In this document: piece after piece, positions 30,747 to 49,312 of the stretch
How the letters are laid out: each line of letters opens with the position of its first letter
Position numbering within the stretch: the first letter of the stretch is position 1
Program-made: the position numbers and the translations under genes
The notes under the pieces: generated by a model
Seen by the model: the letters and a program-made list of their open reading frames with translations, nothing else
What the model was told of the DNA's origin: nothing
Databases searched by the model: none
Assembly (NCBI GenBank): GCA_963762925.1
Contig: CAVXMP010000007.1
Location: forward strand, 83,992 to 147,991
DNA: 64,000 nt
Source: an uncultured Acidobacteriota bacterium
GTDB lineage: Bacteria > Acidobacteriota > Vicinamibacteria > Vicinamibacterales > UBA2999
Direction: 5' to 3'

Positions 30747-30830
30747 TCAGGTGTCAGGTGTCAGGTGTCAGGTTGCGTTTCGCAATCGGCGTAATTACTG
30801 ACACCTGATCCCTGATACCTGGCACCTAGG
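30747..30830. repeat. hairpin element: (CAGGTGT)x3 arm, AATTACGCCGATTG core, complementary CTGACACCTGAT.. arm
   Basis: TCAGGTGTCAGGTGTCAGGTGTCAGG ... CGCAATCGGCGTAATTA ... CTGACACCTGATCCCTGATACCTGGCACC. Located downstream of the rlmI stop and upstream of the thiC riboswitch. Confidence 0.8.
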
Positions 30831-30896
30831 CTAGGTTGCGAGTTACACACGCCGCAGAGGAGCGAGGCTGCCACACTCCTAGGCTCAAGTTAAAGG

Positions 30897-32060
30897 TCAG
30901 GCGAGCCGGCGCAGAATGAAGCACTTCAAATAATACGTTTCCGGCACACCGAGCAGCACGGGATGATCGCGGCCCTGCATGCGCTTCTCCACCACCGTAA
31001 CCGGCACGTGGCTATCGACTGACGCTTCGTGGATGATTTCCGCGAAGGTCGCTTCGTTGACGTTGTACGAGCAACTGCAGGTGATCAGATACCCGCCTCG
31101 ATTCAGCAGGCGCAGCGCCCGCAGGTTGATGTCCTTGTAGCCGGCCAGCGCTTTGGGAATCGACGCTTTGTTTTTGGCGAACGCGGGCGGATCGAGCACG
31201 ATGGTGTCGAAGCGATCTCCCGATTTCTCCAGCACCCGAAGCTCGTCGAACACATTGGCCTCGCGCGCGTCAAGGTTCGTGAGCGCGTTGCGGCTGGCAT
31301 TTTTCACGATATGGGCGACCGCATCGGCCGAGCTGTCGATCGCTTCTACTCGCTCCGCATGACGCGCCAACCGGAGCGCGAAGCCGCCGTTGTAGCTGAA
31401 GCAGTCGAGCACGCGGCCGCGCGCATAAAGCGAGGCGGCCTCACGATTCTCACGCTGATCGAGGAAGAGACCGGTCTTCTGGCCCTTCCACGGGTCGACT
31501 TCGTATTCCACCGGCCCCTCGCGCGCGGTGATGTGCTCAGGGACGTCGCCGTGAAGCACGGCGACGCGCTGCTCCAAGCCTTCGAGCACGCGCACGCGAG
31601 GATCATTACGCGCCAGCACGCCGCGCGCGCCGGTGAGTTCCACGAGGATTGGCACGAGCGTCGGGAGCAGTCGATCGGTCGACTGCGCAAGCGCCTGAAC
31701 CACGAGGTAATCACCGTAGCGATCGACGATGAACGAAGGGATGAGATCGGCTTCGGCGTGAACCAGGCGATACGCCGATGCGTCAATCTTCAGCGACTCG
31801 CGAAACGCGATCGCCGCCTGCAACCGCGCGCGCCAGAACGCGGCGTCGACGCCGACCTCGCCGCGTGCGATCAGGCGGAGCGTAATTTGCGATTGATCGC
31901 TGAAGAAGGCACGCCCCAACACCCGCTGCCGCTGGTTGCGGACTTCCACGATATCGCCGGGTGCGGCAGCGACGTCGGCGATGTCGCTGCGGTAGATCCA
32001 GGGGTGCGCGCGTTTGACGCGTTCTTCACCGCGCGCCGTGACCGTCGCCGTCGGAGTCAT
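30897..32060 (-). CDS. rlmI: class I SAM-dependent rRNA (cytosine-C5) methyltransferase, RlmI-like (PUA + MTase)
   Basis: 387 aa. PUA-like N-terminus, VLDCFSYNGGFAL and IVLDPPAFAK methyltransferase motifs. Confidence 0.8.
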   Translation of the reverse strand: MTPTATVTARGEERVKRAHPWIYRSDIADVAAAPGDIVEVRNQRQRVLGRAFFSDQSQITLRLIARGEVGVDAAFWRARLQAAIAFRESLKIDASAYRLVHAEADLIPSFIVDRYGDYLVVQALAQSTDRLLPTLVPILVELTGARGVLARNDPRVRVLEGLEQRVAVLHGDVPEHITAREGPVEYEVDPWKGQKTGLFLDQRENREAASLYARGRVLDCFSYNGGFALRLARHAERVEAIDSSADAVAHIVKNASRNALTNLDAREANVFDELRVLEKSGDRFDTIVLDPPAFAKNKASIPKALAGYKDINLRALRLLNRGGYLITCSCSYNVNEATFAEIIHEASVDSHVPVTVVEKRMQGRDHPVLLGVPETYYLKCFILRRLA

Positions 32061-32128
32061 GAACTCGCTAGTTTACGTCCGCCCCGAGCGCGGCGCAGCC
32101 AACAACGGCGAAAGTCTCAGCATGGGCT

Positions 32129-47381: not shown

Positions 47382-47520
47382 GTCGGGTGGGTCTGGTGGG
47401 TCGGGTGGGTCTGGGTCGGTGGGTCGGGTGGGTCTGGTGGGGAATTACGCAGATTGAGTCTGTGTAATCCCCTACCCGACCCACCAGCCCCACCAGACCG
47501 ACCAGCCCAATCCGACCTGC
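47378..47520. repeat. hairpin element: G-rich ~18-nt tandem arm (GGGTCGGGTGGGTCTGGT), core GGGGAATTACGCAGATTGAG, C-rich complementary arm
   Basis: The left arm has ten GGG/GGGG tracts in about 70 nt. The right arm is CCCCTACCCGACCCACCAGCCCCACCAGACCGACC. It starts at the stop codon of the CoA-transferase gene. Confidence 0.85.
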
Positions 47521-47603
47521 TACACTAAAGGGTTGGTTCTATTGCCCAAAACCGTCTAGTACCGACTCGCTGGCCAGATGGCCCGCGCTACAAGGTCTTC
47601 TTC

Positions 47604-49202
47604 ATGATTTCAGTGAACGACGTGTCCATGCGCTACGGCTCGAAGGTGCTCTTCGACGAAGTGACGACGAATTTCTACCCCGGCCGCCGCTACGGACTGA
47701 CGGGACCCAACGGGTCGGGCAAGTCGACGTTCATGAAGCTCCTCACAGGCGAGCTGCCGCCGCAGCGTGGCAGCGTCACGCGGCCGGCGAAGATGGGCGT
47801 GCTGCGTCAGGACCACTACGGCTTCGACACCTACCGGGTGCTCGACACGGTGATCATGGGCAATGCGCGTCTCTGGAGCGCTCTCGAAGAGCGCGATCGC
47901 CTCTACTCACAGGCTTCGCTGACCGACGAAGACGGGATGCGTCTGGGTGAGCTCGAAGCCATCGTCGGCGAGGAGGACGGATATACCGCGGAAAGCGACG
48001 CCGCCATTCTGCTGCAGGGCCTGGACATTCCGGATGCGGTCCACGAGCGGCGCATGTCCGAGCTCCAGGGCGGTCAGAAGGTGCGCGTGCTGCTCGCGCA
48101 GGCCCTCTTCGGCCACCCGGCGGCGCTCCTCCTCGACGAGCCGACCAACCACCTCGACCTCGATTCGATTCACTGGCTCCAGGAATTCCTCAATCGCTTC
48201 GAAGGAACACTGATCGTGATTTCTCACGACCGTCACTTCCTGAACGGCGTCTGCACGCATACTGCCGACATCGACTACCAGACGATCATCACCTACGCCG
48301 GCGGGTACGACGACATGGTGGTCGCCAAGACGCAGATTCGCGCCCGTGTCGAGTCGCAGAACACCCAGCGGGAGAAGAAGATCGCACAGCTCAACGACTT
48401 CATCGCGCGGTTCTCCGCCGGCACGCGCGCAAGTCAGGTGACGTCACGCCGCAAGGAAGTCGAGCGGCTGCAAACAACCGAGCTGGCGCGTTCCAACATC
48501 CAGCGGCCCTACATCAAGTTCGCGATGAACCGTCCGTCGGGCCGCATGGCGCTCGAGTTCGACAAGGTGACGAAAAGCTACGAAGACCATCGCGTCGTCG
48601 ATAGCTTCAGCGCGATCGTCAATCGCGGTGAAAAGATCGTGTTGGTCGGGCGAAATGGCGCGGGAAAGACGACGCTGCTCAAGGCGCTCCTCGCCGACGC
48701 GCCTGATCGACCGGCGGCGCCAGGGGATCTTGATGCAGGCACGACCCGTTGGGGTCACGAAGTGTCAATCGGATACTTCGCGCAGGACCACACTGGAGAG
48801 ATTCAGAAAGGGATGACCGCGGTCGAGTGGCTGCATCAGTTCGATCCGGCAGCTTCGCGTCAGGATATCCATGGGCTGCTCGGACAGATGCTCTTCAGCG
48901 GAGAAGAAGGGCTGAAGCCGACGCATGCGCTGTCGGGCGGAGAAACCGCGCGGCTGTTGTTTTGCCGGATCATGCTGCTCAAGCCGAACGTCCTCGTGCT
49001 CGACGAACCGACCAACCACCTCGACCTCGAATCGATCAACGCACTCAACATCGCGTTGCAGAAGTTCGAAGGGACGGTGTTCCTGGTGACGCACGACCAG
49101 GACTTGATCGAAGAAGTCGGCACGCGCGTGTGGCATTTCGACAACGGCGTGATCACCGACTTCAAGGGCGCATACGAGGAGTACTCGGCCGCGGTCGCGT
49201 AG
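47604..49202 (+). CDS. ABC-F family ATPase (YbiT-like; two ABC cassettes, no TM domain)
   Basis: GPNGSGKST / LSGGQKVRV / LLLDEPTNHLD and GRNGAGKTT / LSGGETARL / LVLDEPTNHLD. Confidence 0.92.
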   Translation: MISVNDVSMRYGSKVLFDEVTTNFYPGRRYGLTGPNGSGKSTFMKLLTGELPPQRGSVTRPAKMGVLRQDHYGFDTYRVLDTVIMGNARLWSALEERDRLYSQASLTDEDGMRLGELEAIVGEEDGYTAESDAAILLQGLDIPDAVHERRMSELQGGQKVRVLLAQALFGHPAALLLDEPTNHLDLDSIHWLQEFLNRFEGTLIVISHDRHFLNGVCTHTADIDYQTIITYAGGYDDMVVAKTQIRARVESQNTQREKKIAQLNDFIARFSAGTRASQVTSRRKEVERLQTTELARSNIQRPYIKFAMNRPSGRMALEFDKVTKSYEDHRVVDSFSAIVNRGEKIVLVGRNGAGKTTLLKALLADAPDRPAAPGDLDAGTTRWGHEVSIGYFAQDHTGEIQKGMTAVEWLHQFDPAASRQDIHGLLGQMLFSGEEGLKPTHALSGGETARLLFCRIMLLKPNVLVLDEPTNHLDLESINALNIALQKFEGTVFLVTHDQDLIEEVGTRVWHFDNGVITDFKGAYEEYSAAVA

Positions 49203-49312
49203 GGTCGCACGGTCGGTCTGGTAGGTCGGGTCGGTTATTACACCGATTCTGTTCAATCCGCGTAATTCCCCACCAGACCCACCAGACCTACCAGACCTAC
49301 CAGACCTCCGGG
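49202..49312. repeat. inverted copy of the 47378-47520 element
   Basis: The reverse complement reads ...GGTCTGGTGGGTCTGGTGGGGAATTACGCGGATTGAACAG...GGTGTAATAACCGACCCGACCTACCAGACCGACC. It lies between the convergent ABC-F and DinB stops. Confidence 0.85.

Follow-up and report, generated by a model that had tools for sequence, protein, structure and literature searches.

The window analysed here, a 64,000-nt stretch of contig CAVXMP010000007.1 from an uncultured Vicinamibacterales acidobacterium, contains eight dispersed repeat loci of one broad class, in which tandem 7-9-nt units lie directly after stop codons, either paired in inverted orientation or as a single array. Five of them, designated W1 to W5, share a short core sequence, while the three starting at 9539, 10352 and 62753 are coreless. 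We read these loci as acidobacterial members of a class of inverted repeats built from tandem 7-9-mers, like the short tandemly repeated repetitive (STRR) sequences, that are probably transcribed as 3'-end stem-loops and have grown by slippage; we put the probability of this reading at roughly 0.55. A first-pass annotation of the same DNA had described a family of hairpins with a conserved apex and locus-specific arms. The feature is real, but its make-up was misread, and it is an acidobacterial addition to a known, functionally unexplained class. The elements are mosaics of unit families, each of which recurs at many loci and in further genomes, some of them of other phyla. The core belongs to one such family and takes a different place from locus to locus, as the innermost hairpin layer in W2 and W3, a one-sided array in W4 and W5, and a lone loop half-site in W1.

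Rather than a separate apex module, the core is a stretch of about 1.5 copies of the 9-mer unit GATTACGCN (arranged as ATTACGCNG-ATTG). This follows from the W4 array, which consists of three successive copies, CGCAGATTA, CGCCGATTA and CGCAGATTG (40789-40815), followed by GATTCAG, and from the tandem arms that the same unit forms in metagenome, Gemmatirosa and Bacteroides records. The 'N' that the first-pass annotation placed within the core is the variable ninth position of the unit. A search of the metagenome collection with the apex pattern AATTACGCNGATTG-N3-12-GTGTAAT returned 12 loci, four of which (L199, L202, L205 and L209) lie inside open reading frames (ORFs) and were treated as chance matches. 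At the other eight (L198, L200, L201, L203, L204, L206, L207 and L208) a longer palindrome encloses the apex and closely follows a same-strand ORF, with a gap of 14-76 nt at the five loci where it was read off. Conservation of the apex among these matches is a consequence of the search pattern, which required it. RATTACRCN units serve as arms around this apex in L198, L201, L203, L204 and L207, and 9-mers of the same kind are repeated in the arms that adjoin it, as in GGATTACGCG-AATTACGCA-GATTG and CAGATTACACC-AATTACGCAGATTG. In L207, Tandem Repeats Finder (TRF) reports a pair of CGCGGATTA (2.9 copies) and AATCCGCGT (2.9 copies). Tandem arms of the core unit occur also in a contig of metagenome X4 and in Gemmatirosa L213/L214, which does not support the idea of the core as a distinct apex sequence. 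BLAST against annotated plasmid records found (GATTACGCA)3 together with a hairpin with GATTACGCA arms in Gemmatirosa kalamazoonensis (Gemmatimonadota), and GGATTACGC-GGATTACAC...GTGTAATCC located 3' of secG on a Bacteroides finegoldii plasmid. Two resemblances were set aside as probable coincidences: the TTATCCACA arms at L200 (~604-636) and L206 (~2276-2308) are identical to the E. coli DnaA-box consensus but were taken for a variant of the ATYMCRCA unit, and CAGCCGCGG in one metagenome group, subfamily B, resembles part of 16S rRNA.

The dispersed family itself is well founded. The 13-mer ATTACGCNGATTG has four exact matches in the window, all intergenic, against 0.005 expected. Exact copies of AATTACGCNGATTG number three (30783-, 47443+ and 49254-), and two inexact copies, one with a single mismatch and one with two, lie in the 9-mer array at 40.8 kb; shuffled sequences give a mean of 0.99 matches at up to two mismatches, and none of 100 shuffles reaches five. 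The five core strings of the first-pass annotation are present verbatim, although its coordinates were off by 0-10 nt (corrected spans: 30781-30798(-), 40793-40822(+), 43498-43521(-), 47439-47458(+) and 49252-49271(-)) and the copy at 43.5 kb has diverged. That copy, CGCCGATWACGCAGAT(T)GGATTCAG, is nevertheless clearly akin to the one at 40.8 kb: the end of W5, CGCCGATAACGCAGATGGATTCAG, agrees with W4 at 23 of 25 positions, with one gap, and adjoins the thiolase stop codon (43499-43501). All 13 fixed positions of the core are the same at four loci, with all variation falling on a single position. Between W2 and W3 the 5' half is identical and the 3' partner differs with pairing kept, whereas in W1 and W4 the 5' half stands without a 3' partner. 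The five core loci are grouped within 18.5 kb (p ~0.03).

In seven of seven independent co-directional contexts (one-sided p = 0.008) the core has the same strand as the coding sequence of its neighbouring genes, counted as W1, W2, L198, L200, L201, L204/L208 and the annotated B. finegoldii locus; convergent contexts are uninformative on this point. As a sample of chance occurrences, viral contigs were scanned for the 14-mer AATTACGCAGATTG, and none of the 115 matches evaluated sits in a core-centred hairpin, a sign that the core of the elements is tied to hairpins. The exact core is absent from 1.2 Mb of loci from other genomes, about 25 Acidobacteriota loci included, and a literature search for the exact sequences found no papers.

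The arms, not the apex, are what is widely shared. Contigs of four soil, rhizosphere and sediment metagenomes were aligned on W2, with arm matches taken at 88% identity or above. The arm at 47372-47413, (GGTCKGGTG)n, is matched by 40-59 contigs per run, while the apex is covered by 0-1, and beyond the arm the sequences of the matching contigs are all different. The heptamer of W1, (TCAGGTG)n, is more abundant still in soil metagenomes, with 31-mer depths of 215-2247, and here too the W1 apex is uncovered; a hairpin of the same heptamer occurs also in a Deltaproteobacteria metagenome-assembled genome (MAG; L017). For the (CAGATTACG)n array of W4, 2-5 contigs per run match the array only, and the whole locus is present in one contig of metagenome X1. 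One X2 contig carries an arm, then GAAATTACGCAGATTCAGT, then the complementary arm. Recurrence at many loci or genomes, a mark of STRR-like units, is thus seen for (GGTCKGGTG)n, (TCAGGTG)n and GATTACGCN. A search with the W2 apex and arms found no BLAST match in plasmids and a single match in a phage collection at E = 1, the level of chance.

The same picture emerges from the Gemmatirosa megaplasmids. A detector of paired TRF arrays applied to L213 and L214 (2 x 50 kb) found 14 near-perfect tandem-unit hairpins per 100 kb, with CGCAGAGGA, ACAGGATGA, GGACTGAAGAA and GAGGGCAG among the recurring unit families. Arms, and sometimes outer ends, are conserved in these hairpins and apexes vary; for instance, the outer ends of the GGACTGAAGAA family are CTCCACGTACG...CGTACGTGGAG. 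At least 12 of 15 loci are at gene 3' ends, 0-71 nt from a stop like those of the window, most hairpins being 2-57 nt from the end of a gene. Both comparisons contradict the proposal of a conserved apex between locus-specific arms. The related proposal, that arms are regenerated locally by slippage, draws support from the unequal arm copy numbers, which slippage would produce; local regeneration as such is not supported, the arms being members of widely shared families.

STRR-like sequences comprise about three or more head-to-tail copies of a 7-9-nt unit, and TRF finds such units in the window: TCAGGTG (3.9 copies), CGCAGATTA (2.9), CCATCTGCG (11), GGTCGGGTG (8.2), ACCAGACCT (4), CACGAAGGA (5.9) and GGCTTAG (3.4). 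The description of the core flanks as simple tandem repeats was accordingly accurate. RNAfold and an inverted-repeat search agree that six of the eight loci are long hairpins, with minimum free energy (MFE) z-scores of -5 to -10.7 against shuffled sequence. Their arm units are mutually reverse-complementary, as in STRR-like inverted pairs; W4 and W5 are single arrays. Among the core loci, W1, W2 and W3 fold far better than shuffled sequence, as the hairpin architecture first proposed would have it, whereas the loci at 40.8 and 43.5 kb are not hairpins with tandem arms. W5 lacks a complementary arm and folds no better than shuffles (z +0.7 and +2.1). Coreless hairpins of the same build, also part of the original description, are borne out at 9539-9715, 10352-10486 and 62753-62808. 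In the window, all five G-quadruplex (G4) motif matches are inside tandem-arm hairpins.

As first described, the loci cluster at gene 3' ends: all eight are within -10 to 71 nt of a stop codon, the placement expected of STRR-like elements, and four are flanked by convergent gene pairs. W1 lies 71 nt past the stop of a PUA-methyltransferase gene (30897-32060, -), between that gene and a thiamine pyrophosphate (TPP) riboswitch upstream of thiC, and its apex holds one core half-site, AATTACGCCGATTG (30783-30796, -), with no complementary partner. The riboswitch itself (30613-30715, -) scores 61.6 bits, above the gathering score. W4 lies 19 nt past the stop of a MaoC-dehydratase gene in a convergent pair, and its 5' half is similar to the subfamily B elements (AGCCGCGGATTACGCR-AATTACGCAGATTG). 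The convergent spacer between this MaoC gene and a kinase gene also holds a long hairpin without tandem arms (40901-40980, 33-nt arms); another is at 28960-29017 (23-nt arms), and the arms of both are 91% complementary. In W2, the first arm unit includes the stop codon of a CoA-transferase gene (47379-47381), the inner apex hairpin (47439-47472) reads GGGGAATTACGCAGATTGAGTCTGTGTAATCCCC with the core at 47443-47456, and the 3' end adjoins a conserved block upstream of an ABC-F gene. W3 occupies the spacer between the convergent stops of ABC-F (49200-49202) and DinB (49315-49317). W2 and W3 are one element type, (GGTCKGGTR)n-GGG-core-apex-(YACCMGACC)n, flanking the ABC-F gene in inverted orientation. 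The hairpin at 9539 begins at the base directly after the ddl stop codon; that at 10352 falls between a canonical terminator and the stop of a HEAT/cyclophilin gene (10502, -); and that at 62753 overlaps the gene upstream at its 3' end, stop codon (62763) included, and stops 12 nt short of the citrate synthase start.

The elements are not canonical terminators: a U-tract is missing, and a number of them lie between closely spaced co-directional genes. No T-run follows the W1, W2, W3, 9539 or 62753 hairpins, as an intrinsic terminator would require; TTTTTT is present in one metagenome member, L201. A scan for the terminator consensus gave 21 matches against 14.8 +/- 4.3, not above chance, and canonical terminators with a GC stem and T-run do exist in the window (10030-10070 and 10334-10355). 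Searches of Rfam at the gathering score matched none of the hairpins, the TPP riboswitch alone reaching threshold, and searches by E-value gave only sub-threshold matches to generic miRNA-precursor hairpins. A covariance model of the apex hairpin (R1) finds only W2 (54 bits) and W3 (45 bits) in the window, and has no match in the 1.2 Mb of other-genome loci. An asymmetry of folding energy between strands, as would come from G-U versus A-C pairs, was considered and dropped, being inconsistent from locus to locus.

Features of the 64-kb window (strand as assigned; z, folding energy against shuffled sequence; all frameshifts are apparent ones)
Feature	Position	Strand	Description
W1 hairpin	30747..30825	-	(CAGGTGT)n heptamer arms 30747-30773 and 30798-30825; z -6 to -7
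W4	40780..40837	+	short stem 40780-40790 / 40824-40837; loop is the one-sided 9-mer array
W5	43498..43612	-	one-sided array of ~11 diverged 9-mers, CGCMGATGR on the - strand
W2 two-layer hairpin	47372..47520	+	outer arms (GGTCKGGTR)n; MFE -104.9, z -9.9
W3 hairpin	49210..49310	-	apex hairpin 49233-49271; core 49254-49267 (-); z -7.4
Coreless hairpin	9539..9715	+	(CACGAAGGA)n then (TTCGCGCCC / CCTTCGTGA)n; z -9.6
Coreless long hairpin	10352..10486	.	partly tandem AACTGGA-type arms; z -10.7
Coreless hairpin	62753..62808	-	(GGCTTAG)n / (CGTAAGC)n; z -5 to -6
G4 motif	47385-47428	+	
G4 motif	47469-47491	-	
G4 motif	10403-10429	+	
G4 motif	9652-9682	-	
Frameshifted gene	29010-30664		thiC
Frameshifted gene	8154-9538		ddl
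Frameshifted gene	38157-40302		fadB-like
Frameshifted gene	42315-43501		thiolase
Frameshifted gene	24640-26938		clpA/C-like
Frameshifted gene	20193-23076		epimerase

Because W1, W2 and W3 are absent from the matching sites of relatives whose ABC-F proteins are 86-93% identical, they look like recent, lineage-specific insertions, as judged by comparing sequences. In the window, a module of ~109 nt lies where the convergent ABC-F and DinB genes meet; in relatives with 93%, 88% and 86% identical ABC-F the two stops are 9 nt apart, 3 nt apart and overlapping, so that W3 is missing from the L217, L210 and L215 counterparts. W2 sits exactly between the upstream stop and the conserved ABC-F upstream block CTGYTACACTAAAGGGTT; in L210 and L215 this block directly follows the upstream stop, without W2. 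W1 lies in an expanded spacer that is missing from L215. The comparison of orthologous spacers had been suggested as a means of seeing arms expand or contract; what it reveals is the absence of whole modules, with no matching arms in these relatives. No target-site duplication is visible when filled and empty W3 sites are compared. Relatives with 85-88% identical ABC-F, covering ~43 kb, have no core and few arrays. A second relative at 93%, known by gene spacings only, has spacings compatible with the presence of W1, W2 and W3. A spacer comparison based on the CoA-transferase gene was uninformative, downstream synteny being lost in L001-L003.

Some features of gene order stand beside these comparisons. 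A 6.5-kb block (40838-47371) encoding an APH-family kinase, a thiolase, two MFS transporters and a CoA-transferase is bounded by direct copies of the core at 40803 and 47444. The block is missing in the gene order of the second 93% relative, where ABC-F follows MaoC by 435 nt. In an 85% relative (L216, 11600-12929), the place of DinB after ABC-F is taken by a tRNA gene and an island with a phage-type integrase. The contig of the other 93% relative, L217, is 1666 nt long and reaches only 22 nt upstream and 45 nt downstream of its ABC-F gene.

Taken as STRR-like stem-loops, the elements would be transcribed, forming the upstream mRNA's 3' end or an intercistronic stem-loop, and their very high predicted stability may define, protect or insulate transcript 3' ends. 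By analogy with the hairpins of repetitive extragenic palindromic (REP) sequences, they could act as exonuclease barriers or as leaky terminators without a U-tract. Growth may start from an initial short inverted repeat, each half of which then expands separately by replication slippage, lengthening the stem without coordination. Independent slippage of the halves would explain the unequal arms of W2, with ~8 copies on the 5' side (8.2) and ~5 on the 3' side. Spread to new sites and phyla might proceed by local copying or template switching between nearby hairpins, by an undescribed form of mobilisation, or through a conserved binding factor.

Several observations weigh against this reading. 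The RNA runs were without this sequence, and related sequence was found only in soil DNA metagenomes. Predicted folding does not consistently favour the sense strand, W1 and the 62753 hairpin folding better antisense. A number of elements lie in co-directional gaps of <30 nt (62753 and several in Gemmatirosa), where strong termination would do harm, and the word 'terminator' can therefore be no more than partly right. Slippage accounts for copy number, but not for identical units at unlinked loci or in separate phyla, and for a core that varies at a single position sequence-specific selection is a better fit than a neutral role in structure. The irregularity of the arms may in part be assembly noise, because the window carries apparent frameshift errors.

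It is rather unlikely, in our estimation, that the loci are miniature non-autonomous mobile elements, in the manner of MITEs (miniature inverted-repeat transposable elements), REPINs or cyanobacterial small dispersed repeats (SDRs), which would be moved by a transposase acting in trans, spread horizontally, and become nested by inserting next to stops or in loops. The clean presence or absence of the ~109-nt W3 module between 93%-identical orthologues suggests such mobility, as do the lineage-specific W1 and W2, the near-copies W2 and W3 placed 2 kb apart in inverted orientation, and the grouping of the five core loci; so do the ~70-nt subfamily B elements, which are conserved in different gene contexts (L204 vs L207), the conserved outer ends of the Gemmatirosa GGACTGAAGAA family, and the occurrence of the same units in three or four phyla. 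Yet the W3 sites show no target-site duplication, Pfam scans of ~50 ORFs found neither a transposase nor a REP-associated tyrosine transposase (RAYT) gene in the window, the GTAG or CGTC tag is missing, and the phage collection gave nothing better than its chance-level match. Copies also vary in unit number and apex, unlike an element of unit length. Set against the hallmarks of MITEs, which are copies of unit length, conserved terminal inverted repeats and target-site duplications, the elements give a divided result: copy lengths differ and no duplication is seen at W3, but outer ends are conserved in subfamily B and the GGACTGAAGAA family. The earlier model, in which the 13-14-nt core is a protein or RNA recognition site at a hairpin apex and the arms are a local scaffold of fast turnover, we consider unlikely. 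It draws on the invariance of the 13 fixed positions, the retained pairing of W2 and W3 beside the partnerless half-sites of W1 and W4, the seven sense-strand cases, and the recurrence of one apex within different outer arms, as seen among the window's loci and between subfamilies A and B of the metagenomes. It is difficult to reconcile with arms that are commoner than the apex, with a core that is itself found as tandem arms, with three coreless hairpins of the same build, and with the variable apexes of Gemmatirosa.

The recurrence across phyla of GATTACGCN, TCAGGTG, GGTCKGGTG and CGCAGAnnn, in tandem inverted arrays placed just past stops, could instead be the footprint of an undescribed, sequence-specific and horizontally spreading process, a distinctly unlikely proposition as we see it. 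The organisms sharing units are labelled Acidobacteriota, Gemmatimonadota, Bacteroidota and Deltaproteobacteria. Candidates for such a process would be a very small mobile 'hairpin-writing' element without its own transposase, or slippage that multiplies the sites of a conserved factor binding RNA or DNA; if true, it would be distinct both from independent local slippage and from ordinary terminators. We regard as very unlikely an action at the DNA level without transcription, in which a cruciform, slipped-strand or G4 structure would serve as a hotspot of recombination or rearrangement, a replication pause, or a site for nucleoid proteins or gyrase. The confinement of the G4 motifs to these hairpins, the lack of a consistent strand preference in folding energy, the absence of the 6.5-kb block between direct cores from the gene order of the 93% relative, and the tRNA-integrase island at the 3' end of ABC-F in the 85% relative are in its favour. 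The core's sense-strand bias is not what a role of duplex DNA alone would predict, however, and the close association with stop codons suggests a connection to gene expression; indels elsewhere against the same 93% relative are not hairpin-bounded (32.1-38.1 kb), and repeat-containing loci were more stable, not less, in Rehm et al. (PMC4692102). An integron attC origin was rejected: attC sites conserve the base of the stem and not the apex, and the neighbouring genes in the window have housekeeping functions.

Hairpins of the STRR type have reportedly been described piecemeal since 1990, in cyanobacteria, Xanthomonas, Geobacter and Beggiatoaceae, and to our knowledge no function or spreading mechanism has been established for the class of tandem-unit hairpins. 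Mazel in 1990 and Elhai in 2008 are said to have described cyanobacterial STRR heptamer arrays and the SDRs nested inside them. The resemblance lies in dispersed intergenic tandem heptamers and in a short conserved sequence embedded in arrays, as the core is in (GGTCKGGTR)n arms; the phylum and units are different here, and the embedded sequence is itself a tandem unit. In Xanthomonas and Nostoc, G-rich heptamers (GGGAATC / GGGGAYT) form arrays or inverted pairs that overlap stops or lie within about 50 bp of them, are transcribed, and differ in length between related species while keeping their type; arms so rich in G are capable of folding into G4 structures (Rehm et al. 2015, PMC4692102). 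The present elements likewise are intergenic tandem short units near or over the stop, single or in inverted pairs that form stem-loops, and W2 and W3 also contain G4 motifs. Those genera have one heptamer family each and prefer four units (PMC4692102), whereas here there are several 7- and 9-nt families, up to 8 or more copies, two-layer nesting, and orthologous sites in three relatives without a match.

Geobacter metallireducens carries three classes of repeats (1-3) in which three to five tandem units of 7, 8 or 9 nt are paired with opposite-strand units at variable distance, tens per genome (Aklujkar et al. 2009, PMC2700814). The pairing is similar, and the class 3 consensus MTYCTGA is near the complement of the TCAGGTG-type unit; the Geobacter sites differ in being annotated as putative binding sites of global regulators, some beside insertion sequence (IS) elements, with no emphasis on a position after stops (PMC2700814). 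TAACTGA repeats in Beggiatoaceae, Cyanobacteria and Bacteroidetes provide a precedent for one specific short unit forming tandem arrays in distant phyla with no known means of transfer (MacGregor 2015, PMC4679880). They are almost all direct repeats just upstream of starts, with a proposed role in translation, whereas the present elements are mostly inverted pairs after stops. REP sequences, the bacterial interspersed mosaic elements (BIMEs) and REPINs are dispersed palindromes between co-directional or convergent genes, probably transcribed, for which mRNA stabilisation and termination have been proposed, and their hallmark is a palindrome of 20-40 bp with a GTAG or CGTC tag left unpaired on one side (Di Nocera et al. 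2013, PMC3733652). Our elements share the dispersed palindromes downstream of coding regions in both contexts, but have tandem-unit arms, stems of 80-190 nt and no RAYT gene nearby. The apex-hairpin flanks, GGTGGGG-AATTACGC, CGCG-AATTACGC and CACA-AATTACGC, bear neither tag, so the elements are not REPs or REPINs, in agreement with the first-pass annotation, which had already told them apart from REP/BIME.

New here is the density of the class in a Vicinamibacterales acidobacterium (6-8 elements per 64 kb), the gain or loss of whole modules between close relatives, the sharing of specific units among several phyla, and the constant sense-strand placement of one unit, GATTACGCN. The cross-phylum sharing and the sense-strand bias are the parts most worth following up. 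Gemmatirosa kalamazoonensis, which is cultured and has a finished genome with the 14 hairpins per 100 kb of megaplasmid given above, is a possible experimental model. For annotators, elements of this kind break short-read assemblies and could be miscalled as small ORFs.

The 64-kb window otherwise contains housekeeping genes, including a beta-oxidation cluster at 32-47 kb. Where a source name is given, homologues of its ABC-F protein carry the label Acidobacteria, Acidobacteriota or Vicinamibacterales, with a single exception labelled Betaproteobacteria, and the nearest species genomes are soil Acidobacteriota MAGs. Apparent frameshifts split the thiC, ddl, fadB-like, thiolase, clpA/C-like and epimerase genes into overlapping ORFs. 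The copies in relatives are intact (ThiC, 534-562 aa; FadB-like, 712 aa), and the split genes are likely indel errors of a long-read assembly rather than pseudogenes. Finally, two near-identical tiny ORFs on the + strand (9963-10019 and 10242-10298) encode the Lys/Ala peptides MAKKAKKAAKKAKKAKKK and MAKKAKKAAKKAKKAKKR. Each is preceded by a purine-rich stretch resembling a Shine-Dalgarno sequence, and the terminators at 10030-10070 and 10334-10355 lie downstream; the products could belong to the small and strongly basic peptides that associate with ribosomes.

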